Position numbers and translations under genes: made by a program
Shown here: positions 351 through 18,360 of the stretch, one piece after another
How positions within the stretch are numbered: position 1 is the stretch's first letter
Layout of the letters: each line of letters starts with the position of its first letter
Origin: Sulfurospirillaceae bacterium
Lineage (GTDB): Bacteria; Campylobacterota; Campylobacteria; Campylobacterales; Sulfurospirillaceae
DNA: 64,000 bases
Assembly: GCA_028684065.1 (NCBI GenBank)
Contig: JAQUGO010000007.1
Coordinates: 39,507-103,506, forward strand
Reading direction: 5' to 3'
Notes under the pieces: generated by a model
Told to the model about the DNA's origin: nothing
Seen by the model: only the letters and a program-made list of their open reading frames with translations
Database searches by the model: none

Positions 351-638
351 TTATCCTACTAAAAAATCTATACCCATAATGACCATCAAGCCTTTTGATA
401 CGTATTTATGGTGTTTTTCCTTGATATCTTTACAGCTATCATTGACCATAGCTTCATAATCGTTGCTTTCAACCTTTGTGATGTCAATCTTTTTTTCATC
501 TAATTTGGTATTTACTATTTCAATGGCTTTTTCTCTAATATAACAATCATAAGTCATTGAGATTTTTTTAGATGTATCTTCAATTTTTGTGATGGTTTGT
601 GTTATAACCTCAAGCATTGCCTTTTCCTTCTTTTGCAT
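351..638 (-). CDS. hypothetical small protein (95 aa)
   Basis: Track ORF, co-directional and tightly packed with its neighbours. No recognisable motif. Confidence 0.4.
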   Translation of the reverse strand: MQKKEKAMLEVITQTITKIEDTSKKISMTYDCYIREKAIEIVNTKLDEKKIDITKVESNDYEAMVNDSCKDIKEKHHKYVSKGLMVIMGIDFLVG

Positions 639-924
639 CTTGCGCTTTTTTTAAAACATCTTCAATTTTCATTGCAAAATCATCCATATTGTTAATGGGT
701 TTAAAGGGTGAATTGAGCTGATTAATTTTTGTTTCCAATTGATTGCGTTTGTATTCAACCTTTACATCATGCAAGCCTTGAGCAAGTGCGGAGTTAATCT
801 CTTTTTTCACTTCCCATAGCATTCCAAGAGCAGCTGGTGTATTTTTAACTACAAATTTGCTACCTAGCCACGAAAATTGAGTGAGGATTTTAACTCCCTG
901 CCAGATATCTTTCATTGCTCCCAT
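610..924 (-). CDS. hypothetical small protein (104 aa)
   Basis: Track ORF in the same string of small minus-strand genes. No recognisable motif. Confidence 0.4.
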   Translation of the reverse strand: MGAMKDIWQGVKILTQFSWLGSKFVVKNTPAALGMLWEVKKEINSALAQGLHDVKVEYKRNQLETKINQLNSPFKPINNMDDFAMKIEDVLKKAQDAKEGKGNA

Positions 925-936
925 CTTATGCTCCTT

Positions 937-1167
937 TTAAAATATTCCACCAGTGATCAATGAGAGCACAATACCAATGCCCACACCTGCCCCTACTTTT
1001 TTCCCATCAGCTTTTAAAATCTCTATTTCATCCAAAAGCAACTCATTGAATTTTTCATCGGAGAGATCTACTCGCTGCAAGCCTTGCTTATTTAGCTTTT
1101 TTAACAAGCTATTTTCTGCCATAGTGCGCACACTTTTATCGAACTCTTTTTGTGCTTCATCAAACAT
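937..1167 (-). CDS. hypothetical small protein with C-terminal glycine-rich TM segment
   Basis: The C-terminus KVGAGVGIGIVLSLITGGIF looks like a glycine-zipper membrane anchor. Confidence 0.45.
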   Translation of the reverse strand: MFDEAQKEFDKSVRTMAENSLLKKLNKQGLQRVDLSDEKFNELLLDEIEILKADGKKVGAGVGIGIVLSLITGGIF

Positions 1168-1403
1168 TCTGTCTCCTTATGATATTTAATGACATTATAA
1201 AGAAGCAGATAGTCATATTTTGACTATCAAATAAATCGTAGAGGGGGTGGAAGTGACTATATGGAATCTATTTTGGGAGATTGAAAATAATCACACCAGT
1301 ATAATAAGGCTCCTATTGTTATGCAAATATTTTCAAATTTTTTATATAACTATTTGTATATTTTTGTCAATATTTTGTACTCATGGTAGATTTGGTAAAT
1401 TTT

Positions 1404-1883
1404 TCATTTCTTGGGATTGCGAAAAAGGGTTTGATAACTAATCATCTTGACTTGACGAGAATAAATACCCCATGAAACACCAAAAAAATCTACATTTGCA
1501 TTTTGTGCTGTAGTGTAATCTATGTCATTATCACCGATATATATAGCTTCTTTGTTGTTGATTGAAAAATAATCTAATACTTTAAAAATACCTTCTGGAT
1601 GCGGTTTGTGGTTTCCAACATCATGGTAACAAACTATAAAATCAATATCTACATTATAAAAAGACAATACTTTTCTTACATATGTCTTTGGTGAATTTGA
1701 TACGATTGCAGTCTTTATACCATTATTATAAAGCCTCTCTAATGTATCTATAGCATTAGGGTAAAAATTACATTTATCTATATTTTGATAAACAAGTGAC
1801 CATTGTCGCTTGTCCATTAAAACTTTTATTGTTGATGAATCAAATAATGTTAAATCAAAATCAAATATTACTACTTTTACCAT
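1404..1883 (-). CDS. HAD-superfamily hydrolase/phosphatase
   Basis: N-terminal DxD motif (VVIFDFDLTLFDS), SNS motif II-like (IVSNSP), and GDNDIDY motif IV-like. Its start overlaps the upstream DprA-like gene by 7 nt. Confidence 0.75.
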   Translation of the reverse strand: MVKVVIFDFDLTLFDSSTIKVLMDKRQWSLVYQNIDKCNFYPNAIDTLERLYNNGIKTAIVSNSPKTYVRKVLSFYNVDIDFIVCYHDVGNHKPHPEGIFKVLDYFSINNKEAIYIGDNDIDYTTAQNANVDFFGVSWGIYSRQVKMISYQTLFRNPKK

Positions 1884-2812
1884 AGGGTATCTTTTTGTAG
1901 TGATATATTCAATTTTGCAATGATCTCATCATAGTTATTCGAAGTATAAGGAATTGATGTATGAGAATCAATTAGGTGTTTTACTCCTTCAACTTGTTTA
2001 AAAGTTTGATATTTTTCATCAAGTTTATATATATCAGGAGTAAAAACAGCCCGTTTTAATTTAATAGCATCATTTACTGCGTGCATTGAACCACCTTTTA
2101 ATGATGTTTCAATTACAAATACTGATTTAGATAAACCACTTTGGATTCTATCTCTTTTAACTAATTGCGCTGAATAAAATTTAGTTCCAGGTTTTTCTTC
2201 AGATATAAGTAGCCCATTATTATCTAAGATATCTTGAGCTAATTTTTTATTTTCTGTTGGATAAATATTGTCTATTAAAGGAATAATAGCAATCGTTTTA
2301 CCTTCGTTTTTAAGAGTTGTTGCGTGAGCAATACTATCCATCCCTTTAGCTAAGCCACTCACAATTGTAAAATTATTTTGAATCAAAAACTCTACTGTTT
2401 TAGTGGCTATTATGGCACCTGTTGAAGTATTTTCTCTCGTGCCAATAACTGCGATACAGTTTGAATTTAAAAGATCAAGATTCCCTTTGCAATATAAGAT
2501 AGCAGGTGGATTTGTAGATTCTTTTAAAATATCAGGATAGTGTTTATCATTAATAGTTACGCAATGAATATCATCTTTCTGATAACTATTAATCAAGTTT
2601 TGTATATTGCTATATAAATTATCAATATTTGTGTCAAGATATATTTCGATAGTATTGGCTAGTTTTGTATTAACTATTTTTGTTAAATCAAAATCTTTTA
2701 ATTCATAGATACTATTGATATTATTTAATTTACAGTAATTCAAAATTTTAATTAAATTTACTGAACCCAAGCCTTTTATATTTGTAAGAATTGCTATATC
2801 TATAAGTTTCAT
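1877..2812 (-). CDS. shosA: DprA/Smf-like (SLOG superfamily) protein, ShosA-like
   Basis: The stretch AVIGTRENTSTGAIIATKTVEFL...IVSGLAKGMDSIAHATTL matches the DprA Rossmann core pattern (GxR..S.YG ... SG.A.GID..AH). It follows a PRTase gene. Confidence 0.7.
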   Translation of the reverse strand: MKLIDIAILTNIKGLGSVNLIKILNYCKLNNINSIYELKDFDLTKIVNTKLANTIEIYLDTNIDNLYSNIQNLINSYQKDDIHCVTINDKHYPDILKESTNPPAILYCKGNLDLLNSNCIAVIGTRENTSTGAIIATKTVEFLIQNNFTIVSGLAKGMDSIAHATTLKNEGKTIAIIPLIDNIYPTENKKLAQDILDNNGLLISEEKPGTKFYSAQLVKRDRIQSGLSKSVFVIETSLKGGSMHAVNDAIKLKRAVFTPDIYKLDEKYQTFKQVEGVKHLIDSHTSIPYTSNNYDEIIAKLNISLQKDTLW

Positions 2813-2823
2813 TTCTTATCCTT

Positions 2824-3390
2824 TTATGCTGTTAATTTTTTATAAAATTTTGAGTTAAACTCTTGCTTATCGCTTGTATAGTCTTTATTCCAAAGTGTTT
2901 TTACAAGGGCAAAACAATTAATATTTGCCTGATTATTTGATGCTTTACCGATAGCTCTGCCTATTTCATTAAATGTTGTACCTGTAGTAGAAACATCATC
3001 AATTATCAAATAAGTGCCATTTTTTCTTAATCCTTTCAAGTCACAATGATATTTATGATCTAAAATCTTTTTCCGATTGTATTCTCCACCTGCAAATTTC
3101 AATTGCTCAGTTCTTGTTTTAGTCAAAATATCTGTTATATATTCTGCATTAAACTTTTTTGCAAGTAATCTGCCCATTAAATCTAGTGGTGTATTTTTGT
3201 CATATGTCGAAGTTTCATCACTTCCAAGAGCTCTAACTATATAATCAACCTGAAAACCTTTAAAAATATATTCAAAGTTTTTATCAACATAATGTAGCCA
3301 TCTATTAATAGAACTTTGATTTTCTTTTTTAAACAGTAACAACTCTTTCCCTACTTCATCTCGATAAAATGCTAAAGCTATTTTTTTCAT
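2824..3390 (-). CDS. shosT: phosphoribosyltransferase (ComF-like PRTase), ShosT-like
   Basis: PRPP-binding loop YLIIDDVSTTGTTFNEI. Its size and its position upstream of a DprA-like gene fit ShosTA as I recall it. Confidence 0.7.
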   Translation of the reverse strand: MKKIALAFYRDEVGKELLLFKKENQSSINRWLHYVDKNFEYIFKGFQVDYIVRALGSDETSTYDKNTPLDLMGRLLAKKFNAEYITDILTKTRTEQLKFAGGEYNRKKILDHKYHCDLKGLRKNGTYLIIDDVSTTGTTFNEIGRAIGKASNNQANINCFALVKTLWNKDYTSDKQEFNSKFYKKLTA

Positions 3391-3434
3391 TTTCAGTCCT
3401 TTCTGTTTTTGTATTAGTATTTTAAAAAGCTGAT

Positions 3435-3695
3435 TTACTTTTTTTTACTTTCAAAGTCAGATGGTATTGTCAACGAATTATTTGGCTCATAAGCAGTTAC
3501 TAGGATAGGTTCTTCATTTCGCAAATTGGCAAAGATGTACAAAAATCCATTATGCATCATCTTAAATCCATCAAGAGTTTTATTTGTAACGAACTCTCCA
3601 TATTCAAGCACAGTTTGCACATGTCTTAAATGTGCTCTTTTGGGTAATCCAACTCTTTCTTTGATTCTTTTGCTAGCGTGTTTTGAAATTTTCAT
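3435..3695 (-). CDS. small DUF4258-like protein (possible RNase-type toxin fold)
   Basis: N-terminal SKHASKRIKER and a later ILVTAYEP resemble the DUF4258 pattern (HA..R..eR ... viTvy). Recognition is by eye only. Confidence 0.4.
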   Translation of the reverse strand: MKISKHASKRIKERVGLPKRAHLRHVQTVLEYGEFVTNKTLDGFKMMHNGFLYIFANLRNEEPILVTAYEPNNSLTIPSDFESKKK

Positions 3696-3759
3696 CTCGT
3701 ATCCTTTGTATTTTGATACGAGAACTTTATTAAGAGGATTTACTTTTTTTTACTTTTGA
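3693..3759. repeat. left copy of an inverted ~67-nt divergent-promoter/5'-leader module (includes the start codon of 3435..3695)
   Basis: About 80% identical by hand alignment to the reverse complement of 7958..8025. Shared blocks are CATCTCGTATCCTTT, GATA, TTTAT and AGGATTTAC(T8-9)ACTTTTG. Confidence 0.8.
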
Positions 3760-3783: not shown

Positions 3784-6700
3784 ATGGGGGTATTTATGAG
3801 CAATAATTCAAAAATATTTAGACTTTTTATATCTTCGACATTTAAAGACTTTCAATTAGAAAGAGAAACCTTACAAACAAAAGTTTTTCCAGAGATAAAA
3901 GAATATTGTTCCTCAAAAGGCTATACATTTCAGCCTATAGATTTAAGATGGGGAGTAAGTGCTGAAGCTCAAATAGATCAAAAAGCTTTAGAGATGTGCA
4001 TCAAAGAGGTTCAGTCTTGTAAAAAACATAGCTACCCAAATTTCTTGATAATGCTTGGAGATAGGTATGGATGGGTCCCATTACCTAATATTATTGAAGC
4101 AAGTGAATTTGAGCTTATTTTAAAAAATGTAAAAGTTGAAGATAAAGAATTATTATTATATTGGTACTATGAAGACAAGAATCAACTACCTCCTTCATTT
4201 ATACTAAAACAGCTACCTCCTTCATTTATACTAAAACAGGGCACAAGGAAATATATTGATGATTATAAATGGGCAGCAGCCGAATCAAATTTAAGAAGAA
4301 TACTTCAAAATGCAATAGAAAATTTAGATGATACACTAAGAGCAAAATTCATAACATCTGCTACTGAATCAGAAGCTATAGAGGGGATTGTCTCTTATTT
4401 TAAAAAAACAGAATACCAAAAACAACTATTACACCTGATTCCAGAACTTGAGCAATTAGATCACAAACATATATTTGGATTTTTTAGAGATATTGATACA
4501 AATAGCATTATTGAAGATCAGTTTGTATCAGATGATTACTATAAAGCTCAAGAATTTAAAGATAAAGTCAAAAAACAGCTTGTAAGTGAAAATATTTTAC
4601 ATGTAACTACATCTCAAGTCTTAAAAGATAAGTTGGATGAAAAATATCTTGATGAGTTTACTGAATCAATTTTAAATTTTTTAAAATTACAAGTTGATCA
4701 ACAGATAAAAAAAGATGAAGAAAAAGACTATACAAGTTTAGAATTAGAAAAACAGCAACAACACAACTATCTCAATCAAAAGCTTGAAAACTTTTTAGGA
4801 CAACAAAAGGCACTAGAAGAGATTCGAGATTATATCAGTAATGAAGATGACAAACCGCTTATAATATGTGGCGAGTCAGGTATAGGAAAGTCATCCATCA
4901 TGGCTAAAACTATAGAGGATACTTCTAATACCTTTAGTAAAAAAATTATCTATAGATTTATAGGAGCTACGCCAAACTCTACAACCACAAAAGACCTTTT
5001 AACTTCTATTTTAGAAGAATTAAATATCACTTTAGAAGATGAAAAACTAGATACTATTGAAAATCAATTTTTAACAGATATAGATAAAGAAGAAAATAGT
5101 TTTGTAGAATTATCGAATAAAGTTTATGAAGAAATTATGAATATAACAGATGATATCGTGATATTCGTAGATGCAGTTGATCAGTTGTATAATGATGATC
5201 AGTTTTTATGGCTTCCTAGTCAATTACCATCAAATATTAAAATAGTTATATCAGTATTAAAAGATAGAAATTATAAAGAAGACAGCAAGTACTTTTACAC
5301 ACTAGAAGATAAGATTTCAAAATTTATAGAAATAGAACCATTTAATAAACCAATTGAGCTACTAGAGTTATTACTATTGCAACAAAATAGAACTCTGCAA
5401 GATGCTCAAAAAGAATACTTTTTAAAACAATACAATAAAGTTAATACCCCTCTATATGTATATATAGCTGCAAATCAAATGTTATATTGGACAAGCCATG
5501 ATTTGGTCGATACTAATGTTTCATTGAGTTTTACTCAAAAAGATATAGTAAAAAAATTTATTGAAAATCTAACATCCTTACATCATCATGATAGGAGATT
5601 AGTTAAAAAAGTCTTTGGATATATTTTAGCTTCAAAAGATGGACTTAGTGAGTATGAAATATTGGAGTTATTAAATACAAATAAAAAGTTTGTAAAAACT
5701 ATTGCACCAGATACTAGACATACAAATACTACGCAAGAACTTCCTTTAGTGATATGGACACGACTCTATGGTCATATCAAACCATTTTTAAGTAGAAAGA
5801 AACAAGATGGGCAAGAACTGTTATACTTTTTTCATAGAGAATTTATAGATATTATAGAAAATCAACCAAATCAACAAAAAGAACATAAAAATATTATAGA
5901 GGCCACTCAAAAACTTATAAAAAAGAATCAAGATAAAGAGTTTAATAGTAACAGGTGGGGAAAATTATATGCCAATTTACTGGTAGAATATTTTTTAAAA
6001 TATGATAAAAACGATATAATAAAAAAGTTTTGTAAAATATTAAATAATATTAATAATGACTTCTGGCTAATTAGCTTCATTGAGTTTTTTCAACAGATGG
6101 GATGGAGACTAAATACGCTTAATAAATTTAATGAGGCTTTAGGTCATAGAAAATTAATTAATCTAATTCTTGAAAATTTATACAATAAATCTTCAAAATG
6201 GTTATATCTATACACGCAATCCTCTCATAATGTTGCTAGTACCTTATATCGACTAAACCAAACGATAGAAGCAATAGAAATTGAAGAAAAAAATATAAAT
6301 ATAATTGAAAATATTTCAGATTATGATAGTTTAAATAGTATAGAATTTATGAAATATCTAAATCATCATTCCCTTAAAGAAGCCAAAAATAGTGTTGATA
6401 TTAAAGGAATAGCATCATTAATGTGGACCGATTCTTACTTAAAAATTTTAAGTGTGCTATCTTCTTGTTATAGTAAGAGAAATCAACTTGATAAAGCTAT
6501 AGAGCTAGATAAAAAAAGTTGTAATATTGCTGAGATTTTTTATAATGCACCTAACAATAATGGTAAGTTTTTTATTAAGCATTATTTAACTGCGTTAAAT
6601 AACTTATCTGAGTCTCATTACAAAAATAATGAAATCAATGATGCTATTTCTTTACAAAAAAAAGCATTAAATATTGTAGAACAAGAACATGATTTATATA

Positions 6701-7641
6701 GTGGGTATTTAGTTGAAGATTATGCAAGAATATTGAACAACTTATCTATTTATTTAGAATATATAGATCCCATAATGTCAAAGCAATTCTCTGAAAAAAG
6801 TTATGCCTTAATAAATAAATTACATAATCTCAACCCACAAAGATATTTGGGACAATTGCATAATATAAACTCAAATAAAACATCCATAGATATAAATAAT
6901 GGATATTTAGATAATTATGAGCAATATTTCAGCGACTCAGTAAAAATACTTGATAGTTTAGAAAGTATTGATAAAGAAAATTGGATTGAAGAACAATCAA
7001 ATAAACTATTGATTAAATCTTATGAGTACTATAAAAAGAATGATTTAGAACAATCTTTGAAATATCTTAAGTTAAATAAACGAATTATTGAATATGTGTA
7101 CATAGAAGATAAAAAGTATTGGGCTCAGTTTTATATTCAACAACTTATATCTTTATCAAAAGTTTTAAATGACACAAATCAATATCAAGAAGCTATGTTA
7201 TTGCTAAAAGAAAGTATTAATATCTGTGAACAGTGTATAACAGAAAATGATGAGTGGTATGATTTGTATACAAAGAATATGAATAATCTTGCTAATACAT
7301 ACACTTATTTGAATCAAAAAGAAGAAGCATATGAGCTAAATAAAAAAAATCTTTCTATCAGTACTAAATTATTTCAAAAAGATCAACAAAAATGGTTTAG
7401 AGCTTATTATTGGGCTTTAGAAAATATGGCAAGCACATATTTTTACAATGGAGATGATAAAAAAGAAAAAGAGTGTAAGGATAAAATTAAAGAACTTGAA
7501 TCCAACCCCTTATTTAAATTTGAAAAAGATGTTATAGAAAATAAATCTGATGATAAAAAAATAAAGTATCTCGATTATTTTTATAAAGCTTTATTATTGT
7601 TAGGTATTTATTTCTTTATTAAATATGTATTTTTAGAATAA
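3784..7641 (+). CDS. STAND NTPase: DUF4062-like N-terminal domain + NACHT-like P-loop + C-terminal TPR array + C-terminal TM tail (Avs/bNACHT-like)
   Basis: N-terminus FRLFISSTFKDFQLERE...DLRWGV. Walker A PLIICGESGIGKSSIMAK. Walker B-like IVIFVDAVDQ. Long TPR-like repeats containing NNL(A/S) motifs. Last 22 aa are hydrophobic (LLLLGIYFFIKYVFLE). An alternative start at 3796 (MSNNSK) is possible. Confidence 0.8.
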   Translation: MGVFMSNNSKIFRLFISSTFKDFQLERETLQTKVFPEIKEYCSSKGYTFQPIDLRWGVSAEAQIDQKALEMCIKEVQSCKKHSYPNFLIMLGDRYGWVPLPNIIEASEFELILKNVKVEDKELLLYWYYEDKNQLPPSFILKQLPPSFILKQGTRKYIDDYKWAAAESNLRRILQNAIENLDDTLRAKFITSATESEAIEGIVSYFKKTEYQKQLLHLIPELEQLDHKHIFGFFRDIDTNSIIEDQFVSDDYYKAQEFKDKVKKQLVSENILHVTTSQVLKDKLDEKYLDEFTESILNFLKLQVDQQIKKDEEKDYTSLELEKQQQHNYLNQKLENFLGQQKALEEIRDYISNEDDKPLIICGESGIGKSSIMAKTIEDTSNTFSKKIIYRFIGATPNSTTTKDLLTSILEELNITLEDEKLDTIENQFLTDIDKEENSFVELSNKVYEEIMNITDDIVIFVDAVDQLYNDDQFLWLPSQLPSNIKIVISVLKDRNYKEDSKYFYTLEDKISKFIEIEPFNKPIELLELLLLQQNRTLQDAQKEYFLKQYNKVNTPLYVYIAANQMLYWTSHDLVDTNVSLSFTQKDIVKKFIENLTSLHHHDRRLVKKVFGYILASKDGLSEYEILELLNTNKKFVKTIAPDTRHTNTTQELPLVIWTRLYGHIKPFLSRKKQDGQELLYFFHREFIDIIENQPNQQKEHKNIIEATQKLIKKNQDKEFNSNRWGKLYANLLVEYFLKYDKNDIIKKFCKILNNINNDFWLISFIEFFQQMGWRLNTLNKFNEALGHRKLINLILENLYNKSSKWLYLYTQSSHNVASTLYRLNQTIEAIEIEEKNINIIENISDYDSLNSIEFMKYLNHHSLKEAKNSVDIKGIASLMWTDSYLKILSVLSSCYSKRNQLDKAIELDKKSCNIAEIFYNAPNNNGKFFIKHYLTALNNLSESHYKNNEINDAISLQKKALNIVEQEHDLYSGYLVEDYARILNNLSIYLEYIDPIMSKQFSEKSYALINKLHNLNPQRYLGQLHNINSNKTSIDINNGYLDNYEQYFSDSVKILDSLESIDKENWIEEQSNKLLIKSYEYYKKNDLEQSLKYLKLNKRIIEYVYIEDKKYWAQFYIQQLISLSKVLNDTNQYQEAMLLLKESINICEQCITENDEWYDLYTKNMNNLANTYTYLNQKEEAYELNKKNLSISTKLFQKDQQKWFRAYYWALENMASTYFYNGDDKKEKECKDKIKELESNPLFKFEKDVIENKSDDKKIKYLDYFYKALLLLGIYFFIKYVFLE
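4186..4239 (+). repeat. perfect 2 x 27-nt in-frame tandem duplication (LPPSFILKQ x2) inside the STAND gene
   Basis: CTACCTCCTTCATTTATACTAAAACAG is present at 4186..4212 and again at 4213..4239. Confidence 0.95.
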
Positions 7642-7899
7642 TTATTTTTTAAAGATCTTTTTTAAAAGCCTATTAGATTGATTACCTATATAAGTACCGA
7701 GAAGTATTTGTAGTATTGCTAAAAATCCAAAGCTTATTGCCTGAAAAAATGAATATATTACAAATATTATCGCTAAGGGTGGTATTGTGTTTTCAATAAA
7801 ACTACCTTTCCCATAATAGCTTTGCTTAGCTTTGTCATTGCCCCATCCAGCGATAAACCCAATAAAAAAGCTTATTAAAACTACGGTTTTTATTTCCAC
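7642..7899 (-). CDS. small membrane protein (85 aa)
   Basis: Three hydrophobic segments. Convergent with the STAND gene. Its upstream region is part of the right inverted module. Confidence 0.4.
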   Translation of the reverse strand: MEIKTVVLISFFIGFIAGWGNDKAKQSYYGKGSFIENTIPPLAIIFVIYSFFQAISFGFLAILQILLGTYIGNQSNRLLKKIFKK

Positions 7900-7957: not shown

Positions 7958-8025
7958 CAAAAGTAAAAAAAAGTAAATCCTTTTCATAAACTTCTTTTAT
8001 CAAATTAGATAAAGGATACGAGATG
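7958..8025. repeat. right (inverted) copy of the divergent-promoter/5'-leader module (includes the start codon of 8023..8304)
   Basis: Reverse complement aligns to 3693..3759. See the left copy. Confidence 0.8.
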
Positions 8026-8304
8026 AGGAACTTTAACCAACAGTCTTCAAGCCAAGATAATAAAGAAATTCGAAACTATGTCAAATTGATGCAAGAAAAT
8101 AGGATAAATACTATCGTTGAAATGAATAAATATATTTCTAGAAATAAAATGTGGAATGATTTTTCTGCAATAAGAAGAGAAAACACTTATCAATCTGGCT
8201 TCACATCCATAGGAATTTCTAAAGATGCATACAAATCAATATGTGAACTATATCAAACAGAAGATTCTATAACAACTTTTCTGATTGGACAAAAAAGAAT
8301 TTAG
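8023..8304 (+). CDS. hypothetical protein (93 aa)
   Basis: Track ORF. It is the first gene of a three-gene plus-strand string. No motif recognised. Confidence 0.4.
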   Translation: MRNFNQQSSSQDNKEIRNYVKLMQENRINTIVEMNKYISRNKMWNDFSAIRRENTYQSGFTSIGISKDAYKSICELYQTEDSITTFLIGQKRI

Positions 8305-8372
8305 CTTTTACTTTTGCAAAGTAAGAAGCACAGAAAGATTTCTCAAAATACAATTTTAATCAAAGGAGTTGA

Positions 8373-8867
8373 ATGTTCAAAATAGGAGTTACAGGTCACA
8401 GAGAATTAAAAAAGGAAGATATTGCAACATATAAATTAAAAGTTTTTCAACAATTAAATATACTAAAACAAAAATATAATAAACTAATTTTATATTCTGC
8501 ACTTGCAGATGGTGCTGATAGATTAGTCATATATGAAGCTCAAAAACTTAATATTAAATTTATAGCTATTTTGCCTTTTGAAAAAGAACTATATAAAAAC
8601 GACTTTTATTTAAATTCAAAAAATGAATTTGATGATTTATTAACCAATTCAGAGGATGTTATACAAATACCACACAAATTTATTTTTTCTAAAGAAAAAC
8701 AGTATGAACTTGCAGGTCACTACATATCTGATAACTGTGATGTACTTTTTGCACTGTGGGATGAAAAATATAATAGACTACAAGGTGGTACAAGTGAAAT
8801 AGTTAAATATCATTTAAAAAACAAAAAAAAGCTATGGCATCTTAAGGTATTTAGGAATAGTTTTTAG
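8373..8867 (+). CDS. SLOG-superfamily (LOG/DprA-like Rossmann) small protein
   Basis: Three landmarks: N-terminal glycine loop KIGVTGHR, mid motif SALADGADRLV, and C-terminal LQGGTSEIV (a GGxGT-like LOG/SLOG signature). Confidence 0.55.
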   Translation: MFKIGVTGHRELKKEDIATYKLKVFQQLNILKQKYNKLILYSALADGADRLVIYEAQKLNIKFIAILPFEKELYKNDFYLNSKNEFDDLLTNSEDVIQIPHKFIFSKEKQYELAGHYISDNCDVLFALWDEKYNRLQGGTSEIVKYHLKNKKKLWHLKVFRNSF

Positions 8868-8880
8868 CTAAAATAATCTC

Positions 8881-10206
8881 ATGACACATGAAGAAATTAA
8901 AAAATTATTAGCTAAATATAATATTACAACCCTTGATGAATTAGAGTATTGTCTATCTGCATTTGATTCAAATGATGAGTGCCTTGATGACCCAGAGTAT
9001 AATAAAAAAAACTGCATGAATTCAAAATGCTACGAAGAATATGGTGTTCCTGATTGTAGGAAAATAGTAGAAATTTATAATAAGTACTTTCAAAAAGATA
9101 TAAAAACAAAAAAAGAGTTTATAGATTATTTAGTAAGCGTTGTCAATAAAAAAAGAAGTAGTGTTGAAAATTACATGTCGTGTAAGAGCTGTAATCAACA
9201 AATTGAAAAAGGCATTCAAACAAGCTTAAAAATATCAGATTCTGGTTTTAAAAAAGATTTTTGTAACAATCTCAATATTAAATTTAGCTATATAAGTTTA
9301 TTTCAAACGGAGTATAAATCAATAAAACAATTTTTAAATAAAGAACATCAAGTTACAAGTGATACCTATATCCCCCAATATAAACAAAGTGAAAATACAA
9401 TGACAAAAGATGAAGAAAAAAAATTGTTTGATATTTCTCATACCTCAATAAATATCTTTCAAACTCATTTAAAAAATGAAGAAAATCTAAAAGGTAGTTT
9501 TAGTTATTTATTAAATTTAGCTTTAAACGCTTTTGATAGAAATCTTGTCAAAGAGTCTAATAAAATTCTTACAATCATAGCAACATTATACAATACATCA
9601 TACTTTACCAAAGAATATCTACAACTAAAAGCAAAAATTCATTCTTATAACAAAGAAGACAAAAAAGCAATTGAAGTTTTAAATGAACTGATTGAAAAAA
9701 ATCAGCCAAACATTGACAGTGAAACTTACAACTTATTAGCTGCATCAATTAAAAGAGAAGCTATGGAAGAGTTTGAAAAGTATAGTGATGAAACAATATT
9801 ACATGAAAAACTAATAAAAGCGAAAGATATCTACTACACTGTTTATAAGCTAACTAATAGCTACTATCCAGCCTTAAATTATATATACCTAATGAAAATT
9901 ACTTCATACATTCAACAAGAAGACAAAGTCCCACTAATAGAAAATGCCACCAATATATGGAAAAACATTAATCTTGTGATGAACGACTGGTGGAGCTTTA
10001 TTGCTAATATTGAATTTTTATTAGTTACAGAGCATTATGAAGAAGCTCTATCTGAGCTAGCAAATCATTTATCTGACTTAAACCAGCTTGAAATCAGTGA
10101 ATTTAATCTTTTTTCTACCATTAGACAGCTGGAATTTTATAGTAAATTTTGCGATGATACTCAAATTAAATTGTTCATTCATAAAATTAGAGGATTACAA
10201 CATTAA
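8881..10206 (+). CDS. Cys-rich N-terminal region + alpha-helical TPR-like domain (DUF4071/TRAFs-binding-domain-like)
   Basis: The helical-repeat C-terminal half contains NSYYPALNYIYL, which resembles the YYpGiNaA motif I associate with DUF4071. It starts 13 nt after the SLOG gene. Confidence 0.45.
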   Translation: MTHEEIKKLLAKYNITTLDELEYCLSAFDSNDECLDDPEYNKKNCMNSKCYEEYGVPDCRKIVEIYNKYFQKDIKTKKEFIDYLVSVVNKKRSSVENYMSCKSCNQQIEKGIQTSLKISDSGFKKDFCNNLNIKFSYISLFQTEYKSIKQFLNKEHQVTSDTYIPQYKQSENTMTKDEEKKLFDISHTSINIFQTHLKNEENLKGSFSYLLNLALNAFDRNLVKESNKILTIIATLYNTSYFTKEYLQLKAKIHSYNKEDKKAIEVLNELIEKNQPNIDSETYNLLAASIKREAMEEFEKYSDETILHEKLIKAKDIYYTVYKLTNSYYPALNYIYLMKITSYIQQEDKVPLIENATNIWKNINLVMNDWWSFIANIEFLLVTEHYEEALSELANHLSDLNQLEISEFNLFSTIRQLEFYSKFCDDTQIKLFIHKIRGLQH

Positions 10207-10559
10207 TAAAAATCATCCTGTTGATTTTTATGGATATACAATACAAAAGTATTGATCGAATTTAAATTATTTTCATAGTTCTCAAGAGTATTTGCGATCA
10301 AGCGTATTTTTTTACTAAAACTCAAAGATGTATAATTTACTTCCATTTTATTTGTGATCAATAGATGAATTAGTATTAAAAACAACATTATAAGGCAAAC
10401 AGATATTAGATATGATAGTAATCCTATTTCTAAAAGAAACAGGATCAAACTACTGCTATTCATATCAGAGATATTTGCACTCTCACTAATCATGATTAAA
10501 ATTATCAAATTAATAAAAAATATTATTTTATCGTTTGTAAAAAATTTAATTAAAAGCAT
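10203..10559 (-). CDS. hypothetical multi-pass membrane protein (118 aa)
   Basis: Very hydrophobic and low-complexity. Convergent with 8881..10206 and overlapping it by 4 nt. Coding status is uncertain. Confidence 0.3.
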   Translation of the reverse strand: MLLIKFFTNDKIIFFINLIILIMISESANISDMNSSSLILFLLEIGLLSYLISVCLIMLFLILIHLLITNKMEVNYTSLSFSKKIRLIANTLENYENNLNSINTFVLYIHKNQQDDFY

Positions 10560-11774: not shown

Positions 11775-12653
11775 TTAAATTTTTTCTTTTACAAACTCCC
11801 GTGTCAAAATTCCCACCTTTGGATAGTACTGTAAATCACTACGGTATCCAAGCCTATTGGTAATAAATTTTCTATTGTGCCAAATATACATTCTATGATC
11901 ATGGGTATGGCCATAAATCCAGACTTTTGCTGTAGTTTGAATCGCGAGTTCTTCCCCATCAAAGCAAAAAAACGATGTAGCAATATCTTTGGCATACTGA
12001 GCCAACTGAAATTTCATTTCAATGCTAGGGTTGTAGTGACTGACCATCACATCACAGGCTTGATGCACTGCTTTTAATTTGGCATATTCTTCCTCAAAAA
12101 GTTCATCAAATCTTCTAAAGCGTGTGTATTTTGAATCTTGAATCAGCATAGGCCAATTGGCTTGTAAGTAAGCATCCACATTCGCATAATGTTTGGCTTC
12201 ACTTATTTTTACAAGATTAGGATATTTTTTAGCATAAGCACTATGGTGCCATCCCATAGCGCCGCCAAACTTCACTCCTTCAATCTCAGCAATTGTGCCA
12301 TCAAGCACAATCATACCAGCGTCTTGGTAGCGCTTTTTAGAATCTATCGCTTTTTCTTTTCCATCTTTGTAGTACTGATCGATGATGTCTGCTAGATAGT
12401 AATCATGATTTCCCAAAGTGAGGATAATCTCTTTGTAAAACTCTTCTTTGAGAATTTTGAGGATATGGTTATTTTGCACAATACTATGTCCAATATCACC
12501 AGCCAAGATAAGATACTCTCCTTTAGGTTTAAGACTCTTCCAAAACGAAACAACTTGTTCTTTTTTAGGAAAACTTTTAGGGTCCATCTCTCCCATATAG
12601 GGATACCCAAACCAACTATCAAAATGGGTATCGCTTAGTATGTCAATGAACAT
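11775..12653 (-). CDS. calcineurin-like metallophosphoesterase (292 aa), paralog of 17482..18360
   Basis: Motifs DILSDTHFD, AGDIGH, GNHDYY and GHTHD. Confidence 0.8.
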   Translation of the reverse strand: MFIDILSDTHFDSWFGYPYMGEMDPKSFPKKEQVVSFWKSLKPKGEYLILAGDIGHSIVQNNHILKILKEEFYKEIILTLGNHDYYLADIIDQYYKDGKEKAIDSKKRYQDAGMIVLDGTIAEIEGVKFGGAMGWHHSAYAKKYPNLVKISEAKHYANVDAYLQANWPMLIQDSKYTRFRRFDELFEEEYAKLKAVHQACDVMVSHYNPSIEMKFQLAQYAKDIATSFFCFDGEELAIQTTAKVWIYGHTHDHRMYIWHNRKFITNRLGYRSDLQYYPKVGILTREFVKEKI

Positions 12654-13362: not shown

Positions 13363-14070
13363 TTATCCAATATTCTCTTGTAAAAAGACTTTTTTACTGG
13401 GCCACTCCAAAGCACAAAGCTTTCCTTCATACACACATCCCGTATCAATAGCGGCATAATTATTTGTGATAAGAGGTAAAGCACTCTCTTGGATATCATG
13501 TCCAAAGACATTAAAGACCGGATAGTCTAAATAGGTTTGTTCACGCTTATCTTTCAAACGCTCCCAGGCAAAGGCTTGTTTCATCTCGGGATCTTCTCTC
13601 TCTTCCCAAAACGGTAATCCAAAGCCGTGCGTTATAAAAAGTCTTTTACCGTTTTCATCAGGGATATCAAACTCCAAATAACTAGGCAATTGCTTCATCC
13701 ACTCTAAATGAGGACGCAGCATCTCTCCGCTCTTTCCATTGTAACTACGATCAGTCATATCGCCACCATTGCGTTTCCAAAATGCCATATTTCGCAATGT
13801 GTTGTTACCATACATTTGTCCTCCAAGCGAATCCTCAAAGGCATCTAACATCATCTGTTCATGATTGCCTATGACACAAGGATAACCTCCCTCTTTCACA
13901 AACTCCACTACAAGAGCAGAATATTTACCTCTATCAATTAAATCTCCTACAAACACCAAACGAGATTTGGCCTTTTGTGGCAATTGTTCAATCAGGGCAT
14001 GTAAGGATTTGGCACATCCGTGAACATCGCTGATAATATATAAAGGCTCTTCTTTTTTAGAAAAAAACAT
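13363..14070 (-). CDS. PPP-family phosphatase (lambda-PPase/ApaH/PrpE-like)
   Basis: Motifs ISDVHGC, VGDLIDRG and GNHE, with a downstream GH. Confidence 0.8.
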   Translation of the reverse strand: MFFSKKEEPLYIISDVHGCAKSLHALIEQLPQKAKSRLVFVGDLIDRGKYSALVVEFVKEGGYPCVIGNHEQMMLDAFEDSLGGQMYGNNTLRNMAFWKRNGGDMTDRSYNGKSGEMLRPHLEWMKQLPSYLEFDIPDENGKRLFITHGFGLPFWEEREDPEMKQAFAWERLKDKREQTYLDYPVFNVFGHDIQESALPLITNNYAAIDTGCVYEGKLCALEWPSKKVFLQENIG

Positions 14071-14073
14071 TGT

Positions 14074-14820
14074 CTATCCTTGATAAGGTACTTGATAAAT
14101 CATTTTACTAGGCCACTCTAGGACACTTAAATACATGACTTCACTCTTGGGCAATCGCCCATAAACACAACCTGTATCTATGGCTGCATAGCTTTCAGTC
14201 ATAACAATATTATCCACAACATCGTGTCCAAAGACATTAAACACCGGATAGTCCATATAACCCTCTTCATAGGCGTAGTGTTCTCTTACTTTTAGGGTAT
14301 CTACTCTTTTTTTTAAACGATTATTGCGAAGCTTGATTGCCGTCTCTTTTTTAGCCCTCGCCTTCCAAAACGGTAATCCAAACCCATGCGTTATAAAGAG
14401 GGTTTTACCGTTTTCATCTTTAATGTCATACTCCAAATAACGTGGTAAGTCTTTCATCCATGCTAAATGCTCACTCATCTTTCCTGCATTGGGGCGAAAA
14501 TAGCTGCTAATCGTATTTCTGCCACCATTAAGTTTCCAAAGACGCTTAGTGCTGTAGGTATCCACAATCCCCTCAGCCTCCTCATAACGGTGAGCTTGTA
14601 CCATTACCGCCTCATGATTGCCTAATACACAATCATAATTGCCGTTTTTAACAAACTCTATCACCTGCGCCGAATACTTACCACGATCTACCAAATCACC
14701 CACAAAGACAAGGTTTGATTTCTCTTTGTTGGGGAGTGTGTCGATTAAAGCCATTAAGCTTTTATAACACCCGTGAACATCCCCGATAATATACAAAGAA
14801 TCCCTAGGAACTTTGACCAT
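14074..14820 (-). CDS. PPP-family phosphatase (lambda-PPase/ApaH/PrpE-like), paralog of 13363..14070
   Basis: Motifs IGDVHGC, VGDLVDRG and GNHE. It shares LFITHGFGLPFW and YPVFNVFGHD with its neighbour. Confidence 0.8.
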   Translation of the reverse strand: MVKVPRDSLYIIGDVHGCYKSLMALIDTLPNKEKSNLVFVGDLVDRGKYSAQVIEFVKNGNYDCVLGNHEAVMVQAHRYEEAEGIVDTYSTKRLWKLNGGRNTISSYFRPNAGKMSEHLAWMKDLPRYLEYDIKDENGKTLFITHGFGLPFWKARAKKETAIKLRNNRLKKRVDTLKVREHYAYEEGYMDYPVFNVFGHDVVDNIVMTESYAAIDTGCVYGRLPKSEVMYLSVLEWPSKMIYQVPYQG

Positions 14821-17481: not shown

Positions 17482-18360
17482 TTATTTTTTTTCGATTACA
17501 ATTTCTTTGGTGATTACTGTGTTGGGTTTTGGCCACTCGTTGTAATAACCTAAAGCATTCGTGATACACTCTTTGCTGTGCAGTGTATAGCGCATGCTAT
17601 CGTGTGTATGTCCATAAATCCAAAGATTCCCATGCATGTTCTTAACCAACGCTTCTCCATCAAAGCAAAAGAATGAGGTACTAGGATTTCTAGCCCACTG
17701 TTTTGTTTGATGTTCAAATTCAATGCTTGGATTGTAGTGACTGACCATTACATCACAAGCTTGATGCACTGCTTTTAATTTGGCATATTCTTCTTCAAAG
17801 AGTTCATCAAAAAAGCTTAGTTTGGTATAGCGCTTGTCATTGATGCAATCGCTCCAAAGTTCTTGTAGAAAATCCTCCAAAGAGGGATAATAATGAGAAG
17901 CCTGCATGACTCCTAACTTTGCTTTGTTCTTTTTGGCATAAGCACTATGGTACCAACCCATAGCGCCACCAAATTTCACTCCTTCAATCTCTACCACTGA
18001 CCCATCAAGCACAATCATGCCAGCCTTTTCATAACTAGCTTTAGCTGCAGATGCTTTTTCCTGACCACTTTGATATAACGATTTATATTCACGATCTGCT
18101 ACATAGTAATCGTGATTTCCAAGTGTGAGGATAATCTCTTTGTAAAACTCTTCTTTGAGTATTTTTAGGATGTGGAGGTTTTGCACAATACTATGTCCAA
18201 TATCACCAGCTAAGACAAGATAATCAGCTTTAGGCTTGAATCTTCTCCAAAGACTGATAACCGTTTCATGGTGAGGATAAAGTTTTTTAGGCTCATCCAT
18301 ATGTGGGTATCCTAACCAGCTATCAAAATGGGTATCGCTTAAAATATCGATTAGCATCAT
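17482..18360 (-). CDS. calcineurin-like metallophosphoesterase (292 aa), paralog of 11775..12653
   Basis: Motifs DILSDTHFD, AGDIGH, GNHDYY and GHTHD. Long near-identical nucleotide blocks are shared with 11775..12653. Confidence 0.8.
   Translation of the reverse strand: MMLIDILSDTHFDSWLGYPHMDEPKKLYPHHETVISLWRRFKPKADYLVLAGDIGHSIVQNLHILKILKEEFYKEIILTLGNHDYYVADREYKSLYQSGQEKASAAKASYEKAGMIVLDGSVVEIEGVKFGGAMGWYHSAYAKKNKAKLGVMQASHYYPSLEDFLQELWSDCINDKRYTKLSFFDELFEEEYAKLKAVHQACDVMVSHYNPSIEFEHQTKQWARNPSTSFFCFDGEALVKNMHGNLWIYGHTHDSMRYTLHSKECITNALGYYNEWPKPNTVITKEIVIEKK

Follow-up and report, generated by a model that had tools for sequence, protein, structure and literature searches.

The TPR-S systems were reportedly defined by Burroughs and Aravind in 2020. 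Among anti-phage systems built from TIR and TPR proteins, type VIII Thoeris uses a TIR protein that makes canonical cyclic ADP-ribose (cADPR) on infection, activating ThsI, which consists of a CMP-hydrolase and a TPR that the authors suggest to perceive cADPR; in type VII Thoeris the cADPR-activated effector is a SLATT protein, at times encoded in the same operon as ThsI (bioRxiv 10.64898/2025.12.03.692087). The BcTir/BcTpr pair of Bacillus cereus protects E. coli against T-phages, and the same preprint, in its summary of Burroughs & Aravind 2020, lists five “YspA-Tpr assemblies”, four from Proteobacteria and one from Bacteroidota (bioRxiv 10.1101/2023.05.26.542521). Here we describe a cassette found in a 64,000-nt stretch of DNA from a Sulfurospirillaceae bacterium (GCA_028684065.1, contig JAQUGO010000007.1, positions 39,507–103,506; this whole stretch is called the window and all coordinates refer to it) in which a gene for a small SLOG protein is paired with one for a TPR-S protein that carries a probable helix-turn-helix (HTH) head. 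By analogy with the systems above, this pair is most likely a candidate relative of Thoeris with SLOG in the place of TIR.

As in type VIII Thoeris and BcTir/BcTpr, the cassette has the organization of a two-gene operon coding a small protein of the TIR/SLOG fold class and a protein with a C-terminal “Aravind” sensor TPR, and its setting is a defence island. The TPR of the described systems is proposed to perceive an NAD-derived signal (cADPR), and one relative of the window TPR-S protein, P0169, carries a ThsB-type TIR. The differences lie at both ends. The upstream partner is a TIR in the described systems and a YpsA-type SLOG in the cassette, which has no TIR domain of its own. Their head is a CMP-hydrolase or a MilB-like glycosidase, whereas the cassette has an HTH-like, cysteine-decorated helical domain and no enzymatic effector; no killing or arresting effector of the SIR2, membrane pore, nucleotide hydrolase or caspase-like kinds is found in it. 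The output step of type VIII Thoeris is a nucleotide hydrolase while that proposed for the cassette is DNA binding. Of the domain kinds that bind the signal in Thoeris effectors (SLOG, Macro, or TPR as in ThsI), the cassette has a SLOG and, as a putative counterpart of the ThsI TPR, TPR-S; a signal-binding role of either would be by analogy. An initial inspection of the DNA letters (the sequence-only reading) had matched this combination to no named kind. This claim does not hold: the TPR-S class and the YpsA-TPR-S association are already described computationally, to judge from the summary cited above, and relatives made of TIR and TPR are validated anti-phage systems. According to that summary, a YpsA-family SLOG gene adjoins a TPR-S gene in the “YspA-Tpr assemblies” as it does here; the head of their TPR protein may be of the HTH type seen in the window or the glycosidase-type “core Tpr”.

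The ORF (open reading frame) list places the SLOG gene (164 aa) at 8373–8867 and the HTH-TPR-S gene (441 aa) at 8881–10206, both on the plus strand and separated by 13 nt. A 93-aa gene (p93; 8023–8304, plus strand) ends 68 nt before the SLOG gene, and a convergent ORF for a 118-aa membrane protein with two transmembrane helices (10203–10559, minus strand) overlaps the end of the 441-aa gene by 4 nt. The sequence-only reading had described exactly this arrangement, and the motifs that it quoted are present (GVTGHR, ADGADR and GGTSEIV in the 164-aa protein, YYPALNY in the 441-aa protein). Database homologues number 91 for SLOG, 102 for the TPR-S protein and 8 for the 93-aa protein; because these exist, together with a cluster of the membrane ORF in 8 sequences, the ORFs are considered real genes and not chance. 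The comparison set comprises the window and 45 related loci (L001–L045), of which L033–L036 belong to a sister clade. The relatives are mostly metagenomic contigs of Campylobacterota or Sulfurovum-like bacteria. Only two loci come from species-representative genomes, and no homologue of the TPR-S protein was found in plasmid and phage collections.

The SLOG gene lies directly upstream of the TPR-S gene in 24 of the 27 informative loci (sampled by TPR-S and with sufficient sequence). In one of the three exceptions (L019) the TPR-S protein P0169 has the ThsB-type TIR fused to its N-terminus and no SLOG gene is present: in this relative TIR replaces SLOG. In the other two (L020, L021) the TPR-S gene directly follows a thymidylate-synthase-like gene and a SLOG paralogue is found elsewhere in the locus. 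Pairwise identities of SLOG and TPR-S proteins are correlated (r = 0.855 over 15 loci), a value reached in none of 2000 Mantel permutations. The two proteins are fused in P0161, and P0237 is an apparent fusion of a SLOG-like part, recognised by eye, with HTH and TPR-S. In the sister clade (L033, L034) a 185-aa SLOG gene overlaps the HTH-TPR-S gene by 4 nt; its product aligns with the window SLOG family at 99.9% probability (hhalign, E 7e-34), the pair being retained at ~21–33% identity. The predicted functional unit is a compact two-gene cassette of ~1.9 kb that codes a YpsA-type SLOG and an HTH-TPR-S protein.

Known SLOG proteins act as a sensor of ligands in the case of ThsA, a hydrolase in that of LOG, a DNA-binding protein (DprA), an antitoxin (ShosA) or an inhibitor of cell division (YpsA). 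Both its fold and the profile matches of its family identify the 164-aa protein as a YpsA-type SLOG. The AlphaFold2 (AF2) model has a pLDDT of 94.9 and its best Foldseek match is B. subtilis YpsA (2nx2; E 5.6e-8, TM 0.79), followed by DprA (E from 6.3e-7), ShosA (8zva; E 7.0e-6), LOG proteins (E 4.1e-4 and weaker) and the SLOG domain of ThsA (7uxs; E 9.4e-4). The window protein itself matches nothing in Pfam at E ≤ 1. Among 67 aligned homologues, 21 match YpsA (PF06908) and 17 DprA (PF02481) at E < 0.01, three have a YAcAr match, and a PDB search with the family profile brings up B. subtilis YpsA (E 0.0025). The SLOG assignment of the sequence-only reading is confirmed by these results. Residues G8, H9, G47, D49, P68, Y74, Y111, W129, G138, G139 and T140 are invariant in the 67 sequences while R10, D77, D130 and E142 are nearly so. 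They include the GxD/E signature (G47-A48-D49) and the glycine loop (G138-G139-T140), the ligand-pocket motifs GxD/E and GG(T) being common to YpsA and the window protein. In YpsA the GxD/E motif is the predicted nucleotide-binding site and its mutation abolishes function (PMC6459960). YpsA differs in that it is coupled to gpsB, inhibits FtsZ assembly and has only ~13% identity to the window protein, which gets no Pfam YpsA match. In ThsA (SIR2-SLOG) of type I Thoeris, SLOG is likewise associated with NAD-derived signals in anti-phage defence; there it is a sensor fused to the SIR2 effector, whereas the cassette SLOG stands alone with 164 aa and has YpsA as its closest structure.

The sequence-only reading had noted that SLOG proteins serve as antitoxin or sensor partners in ShosTA- and PsyrTA-type systems; in a pair of that style the window SLOG would neutralise a toxic 441-aa partner. 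ShosA and PsyrA are indeed DprA-like SLOG proteins, ShosA is among the structural matches (E 7e-6) and a genuine ShosTA-like operon is found in the same island. Yet the 441-aa protein consists of HTH-like and TPR-S parts with no domain of a toxin type, and the phosphoribosyltransferase (PRTase) and RecQ-like helicase that are the toxins of those systems are both absent from the cassette. The window SLOG is not matched by the ShosA or PsyrA models of PADLOC, and the stable fusions P0161 and P0237 fit such a pair poorly. A toxin–antitoxin function is very improbable, and the antitoxin role, for which nothing was found in support, was set aside for want of a toxin-type partner and of a ShosA/PsyrA match.

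The partner protein of 441 aa matches Pfam TPR-S (PF20308) at aa 245–338 (9613–9894; E 3.2e-10, 40.9 bits for a cut-off of 27.6), as do all but one of its 102 homologues. Together with the AF2 model, which is all-helical (pLDDT 88.3), the match delimits a TPR-S sensor domain at aa ~200–441 (9478–10206, plus strand). No enzymatic domain was found by Pfam, AF2 or Foldseek, in agreement with the helical-repeat body without enzyme motif that had been read from the letters. Foldseek of the model against PDB and viral structures gave only generic TPR proteins, a phage Rap protein among them and none at E ≤ 0.001, and was uninformative for the head; the PDB profile search with the family returned nothing significant. 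The resemblance to DUF4071 proposed by the sequence-only reading fails as an assignment, as there is no match to DUF4071/MAP3K_TRAF_bd (PF13281) at E ≤ 1 and TPR-S is found instead. It survives as a remote likeness, because a single distant relative, P0251, weakly matches both families (PF13281 at 23.4 bits for a cut-off of 24.1).

Residues K291, R292, Y329, N333, Y336, W370, W371, E378 and Q416 form a conserved polar and aromatic pocket of TPR-S that is near-invariant in 75 distant relatives with differing N-terminal fusions. The N-terminal partners across TPR-S relatives are HTH, SLOG-HTH, TIR, trypsin-TIR and cyclase-like domains, all of which process nucleotides. Since the pocket stays constant while the partners change, TPR-S looks like a sensor of a conserved small ligand rather than of a variable phage protein. 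A profile search of 1.84 billion cluster representatives retrieved 125 relatives only, many of them ~380–410 aa long with a recognisable N-terminal HTH of the Cro/C1 type.

The head of the window protein starts with a helical extension (aa 1–54; 8881–9042, plus strand) containing the conserved C34, C45 and C50. It is followed by the segment aa 55–145 (9043–9315, plus strand), with five AF2 helices and the conserved C59, C101, C104 and C128. Over the family C45, C59, C101 and C128 are conserved and C34, C50 and C104 nearly so; a putative structural zinc site in this head is plausible. The window clade (A3) and the sister clade (A5) align collinearly from aa 55 to the C-terminus (hhalign 99.9% probability, E 1.5e-35), which places the segment aa 55–145 on the HTH of the sister clade. 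There, Pfam HTH_3 matches 6 of 23 members (best E 2.3e-7) and the N-terminal profile gives weak but coherent matches to XRE, Cro, HipB and PezA structures. A profile of the HTH only, run on the window clade, picks the same segment weakly (E 0.0035, probability 9%), and the window protein has no direct match to Pfam HTH (PF01381). The head is probably a diverged Cro/C1-type HTH, called probable and not proven because the HTH-only match is weak. The Cys-rich head of the sequence-only reading is borne out as to its cysteines, and it acquires this additional assignment. An HTH-like, Cys-decorated head is also found N-terminal to an NPHP3_N-type STAND NTPase in P0244 (765 aa; L032 1527–3824), with no SLOG gene nearby. 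The head is thus a portable module, able to pair with STAND sensors as well.

The GC content is 24–30% up to ~11 kb of the window and 33–40% beyond. In the low-GC stretch, a neighbouring operon matches the PADLOC models of ShosA (6e-69) and ShosT (6e-07), and the gene adjoining the cassette codes a 1285-aa DUF4062-STAND-TPR protein, in accordance with the defence-island placement claimed by the sequence-only reading. Neighbours of defence type over the comparison set include ShosTA, DUF4062-STAND, DarTG, HipBA, PLD-domain and TIR-TPR genes. In all long loci the SLOG/TPR-S cassette is surrounded by defence cassettes, although the neighbouring genes vary. PADLOC and NCBIfam contain no model matching SLOG, TPR-S, p93 or the membrane ORF. 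Wastewater metatranscriptome contigs span all the genes and both junctions (8317–8457, 8709–8905), weakly suggesting co-transcription of the cassette genes. A promoter and terminator scan was uninformative in this AT-rich DNA, with 29 sites for 25.7 expected and no terminator.

HTH followed by TPR is also the architecture of RRNPP regulators (PlcR, AimR, Rap/NprR), in which an N-terminal Cro/C1-type HTH precedes a TPR ligand-binding domain, as in the cassette. The pair might accordingly have no immune function and consist of an RRNPP-kind regulator and a YpsA-like one, acting for instance on cell division or on NAD/ADP-ribose metabolism, that reside in the island by chance. The phage Rap protein among the Foldseek matches, the regulation of cell division by YpsA in B. 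subtilis and the lack of a PADLOC model for both proteins would agree with this. It is nevertheless distinctly unlikely: defence cassettes surround the pair in all long loci despite its changing neighbours, and fusions to TIR, trypsin-TIR or STAND modules, which are typical of conflict systems, occur among the relatives. A small family of patchy distribution (125 representatives out of 1.84 billion) also speaks against it. No sequence relationship to RRNPP proteins was detected and the signature of the cassette TPR-S (KR, YYPxLNxxY, WW, RQ) is distinct from theirs. No gene for a secreted signalling peptide was found, and p93 was ruled out as an RRNPP-type peptide on the ground that it lacks a signal sequence.

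We tentatively favour, at somewhat less than even chances, a Thoeris-like nucleotide-signalling module with SLOG in the position of TIR, TPR-S as sensor and the HTH as DNA-binding output. The cassette would be transcribed from a promoter and leader common to many cassettes of the island (see below). On infection, SLOG would act in the place of TIR as a signal-handling enzyme, rather than as a second sensor, and make or process a ligand that would be nucleotide- or NAD-derived. The invariant TPR-S pocket would bind this ligand, and the N-terminal HTH would convert binding into a DNA output, either altered transcription or direct occupancy of DNA. Several points weigh against this model. We know of no SLOG protein for which signal generation has been reported. 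The HTH call rests mainly on collinear homology to the sister clade, an HTH by itself neither kills nor arrests a cell, and no conserved target gene was seen next to the pair. The TPR of ThsI and BcTpr is likened to the window TPR-S by published description; as the profile found only 125 cluster representatives and ThsI is abundant, the ThsI type would be related distantly at best. Neither protein of the pair has a PADLOC model, and the anti-phage or anti-plasmid role is one that we infer from context alone. Finally, the RNA contigs are assemblies and may include DNA.

The polarity could also be reversed. HTH-TPR-S would then sense infection by way of a phage protein, phage DNA or a host-derived ligand and would activate or release SLOG, which as effector would deplete NAD+ or nucleotides in the manner of a LOG-like N-glycosidase. 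Nucleotide N-glycosidase activity is established for LOG-family SLOGs, and the window protein retains a conserved acidic and basic pocket (H9, R10, D49, D77, D130 and GGT-S-E142). The TIR that takes the place of SLOG in P0169 belongs to a domain that is often an NADase effector, the Pfam text on TPR-S reportedly describes a sensor that activates an effector, and no further effector gene would be required. However, fast-evolving phage proteins match a TPR-S pocket that is invariant over diverse fusions less well than a conserved small ligand does. Among the characterised relatives, moreover, the TPR protein is receptor and effector and the upstream TIR is generator or regulator. The GGTSE of the window SLOG differs from the LOG motif PGGxGTxxE, and catalysis is not known for YpsA. 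This reading is possible if rather doubtful, and we retain the module with SLOG in the TIR position as the working model.

The sequence-only reading had grouped p93 with SLOG and the TPR-S protein in a three-gene module. Co-conservation holds for the latter two, and p93 stands apart: it is found upstream of SLOG in none of the 20 TPR-S-sampled loci with sufficient upstream sequence. The trio is kept only in the window and its closest relatives (L037–L045). Relatives of p93 (44–51% identity) are encoded ahead of STAND NTPase genes at two places in L010 and in L016; in L015 and L017 they lie away from SLOG, where the next gene is unidentified or the contig ends. No match to p93 was found in Pfam, NCBIfam or PADLOC. 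p93 is a swappable, lineage-specific leader gene and not a core component, and the core comprises two genes.

The convergent membrane ORF is likewise of limited distribution. Its family has members in 8 sequences, the window and seven related loci, and the ORF is convergent with and overlaps TPR-S in 13 sequences (the window, L001, L002, L004, L008, L009, L022, L037, L038, L040, L041, L043 and L044). About half of the loci lack it downstream of TPR-S, in L016 a p93-STAND cassette is inserted between the two, and no cassette motif lies upstream of it. In the window and in L041 no other gene lies between it and the higher-GC core, and it is probably a clade-specific flanking gene at the edge of the island. 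Two-transmembrane effectors of the SLATT kind go together with SLOG and SMODS, and a larger system of three or four genes can be imagined in which the membrane protein is a SLATT-analogous effector and/or p93 is obligatory. Such a system would have a parallel in type VII Thoeris, with its cADPR-activated SLATT effector sometimes in operon with ThsI, and would fit the overlap with TPR-S in 13 sequences and the retention of p93 in the closest sub-clade. We consider it quite improbable: the membrane ORF is on the opposite strand without cassette promoter, is missing from about half of the loci and is split from TPR-S in L016, and p93, absent in 20 of 20 unbiased loci, elsewhere precedes unrelated STAND genes. 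A SLATT identity was ruled out because none of the 8 family members matches SLATT at E ≤ 1; the search gave no match to another Pfam family either. On these grounds a functional link of the membrane ORF to the cassette is disfavoured. An 85-aa membrane protein is encoded in a comparable position at 7642–7899 (minus strand), convergent with and abutting the stop codon of the STAND gene, and likewise in L002, L009, L022, L024 and L037–L039; the layout of this ORF and STAND mirrors that of the 118-aa ORF and TPR-S.

The leader of the cassette (7958–8022, plus strand) carries the 21-nt motif AAAGTAAAAAAAAGTAAATCC (7960–7980), a −10-like CATAAA and an AAAGGA ribosome-binding site, followed by the ATG of p93. 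Positions 7958–8007 are 88% identical over 50 nt to the reverse complement of 3709–3758. The 21-nt core has three copies in the 64-kb window for 0.04 expected: 7960–7980 (plus strand) upstream of the 93-aa gene, 3736–3756 (minus strand) upstream of an 86-aa gene and 3431–3451 (minus strand) upstream of the ShosT-like gene. The leader shared with the ShosTA-like operon that had been noted from the letters is thereby corroborated. The motif is built of tandem AAGTAAA half-sites ~10–11 nt apart (AAGTAAA-N3-AAGTAAA) and has 65 copies in the window and the 45 related loci, 62 of them in L001–L045. Nearly all copies lie ~35–45 nt upstream of an ATG, with a −10-like hexamer and then an AAAGGA ribosome-binding site downstream of the motif. 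They precede SLOG, p93, the 86-aa gene, ShosT and DarT, and STAND NTPases by way of the p93 and 86-aa leader genes. No copy was found in the other 53 kb of the window or in the sister-clade loci L033–L036. Matches to an 18-nt motif core in viral contigs are scattered, single and found in AT-rich contigs, and are taken as chance. The motif looks like an island-specific promoter or operator; possibly it is a site of recombination and cassette shuffling.

HTH-TPR-S could, in principle, be a one-component receptor with a transcriptional output and a second-messenger-controlled master switch of the neighbouring cassettes acting through this motif, with SLOG as the enzyme that generates or converts the signal. 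It would turn on or de-repress the entire set of defence cassettes bearing AAGTAAA-N3-AAGTAAA, a motif found ahead of nearly all cassettes of these islands. We give this proposal little chance.

The spacer between p93 and SLOG (8305–8372, plus strand) contains a decayed copy of the leader and a short hairpin. It aligns with the leaders found upstream of SLOG in L001, L002, L004, L008, L016 and L024, and keeps the first AAAGTAA half-site and an AAAGGAG ribosome-binding site, whereas the second half-site and the −10 are degraded. Because the spacer holds a decayed leader of the SLOG type, its sequence suggests that p93 was inserted with its own leader in front of an older two-gene cassette. The hairpin of ~10–11 bp (CTTTTACTTT / AAAGTAAGAAG; 8306–8330) lies directly 3′ of the p93 stop codon and overlaps the decayed half-site. 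At the hairpin region 34 nt are missing from one metatranscriptome contig (run X7), 8316 being joined to 8351.

The 86-aa protein (MKISKHASKRIKERVGLPKRAHLRH...), encoded at 3435–3695 (minus strand) in the window, at 1133–1393 (minus strand) in L037 and also in L010, L015, L019 and other loci, is the first gene product of otherwise unrelated cassettes. Its gene precedes ShosT/ShosA (window, L001, L020, L022), DarT-Macro (L037), STAND NTPases (L015) and other genes. The protein has no Pfam, NCBIfam or PADLOC match and may serve island cassettes in general as a regulator or leader protein.

Other features of the island and its borders were recorded. A three-gene cassette often found directly upstream of SLOG/TPR-S codes a DUF4062 and Lcl_C protein, an AIRS/PurM-like protein and a thymidylate-synthase-like protein (L001 3932–7867; L020 3149–6215; L021 1954–5010; L045 573–3648; also in L008, L017 and L023). 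It is a candidate nucleotide-modifying conflict system, and in L020 and L021 it runs directly into TPR-S without SLOG. The ShosTA-like operon of the window (1404–3390, minus strand) is separate from the SLOG/TPR-S cassette and comprises the ShosT/ShosA pair (1877–3390, minus strand), a PRTase and a DprA-like protein, with an overlapping gene for a HAD-family phosphatase as the third; the same trio is found in L021 and L022. The 1285-aa protein (3784–7641, plus strand) combines DUF4062, a NACHT/NPHP3_N-type STAND module and TPR, and its gene has an in-frame tandem duplication of 27 nt (4180–4233) that repeats the peptide QLPPSFILK. A conserved block of small proteins, of which some end in a hydrophobic tail, flanks the opposite side of the island in the window (351–924, minus strand) and occurs in L002 (8753–11156), L008, L009 and L022; in related loci it is followed by a membrane protein and a PLD-domain protein. 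Just outside the island, the higher-GC part contains paralogous pairs of metallophosphoesterase-like genes (11775–12653 and 17482–18360; 13363–14070 and 14074–14820, all on the minus strand).

Thoeris-type immunity has so far been defined by TIR enzymes that make ADP-ribose-derived messengers and by effectors that lead to the death or starvation of the cell. The cassette appears to keep the sensor TPR of one Thoeris effector family with both ends changed, a YpsA-type SLOG taking the place of the TIR and a probable DNA-binding head that of the enzyme. The 21-nt promoter-like motif offers a handle on the regulation or shuffling of whole defence islands. If the proposed signalling role is true, the YpsA branch of the SLOG superfamily, large and little understood, would gain a biochemical role. 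It would also follow that SLOG and TIR are interchangeable as signalling partners and that, for the first time, a Thoeris-like module has a transcription factor as its output.

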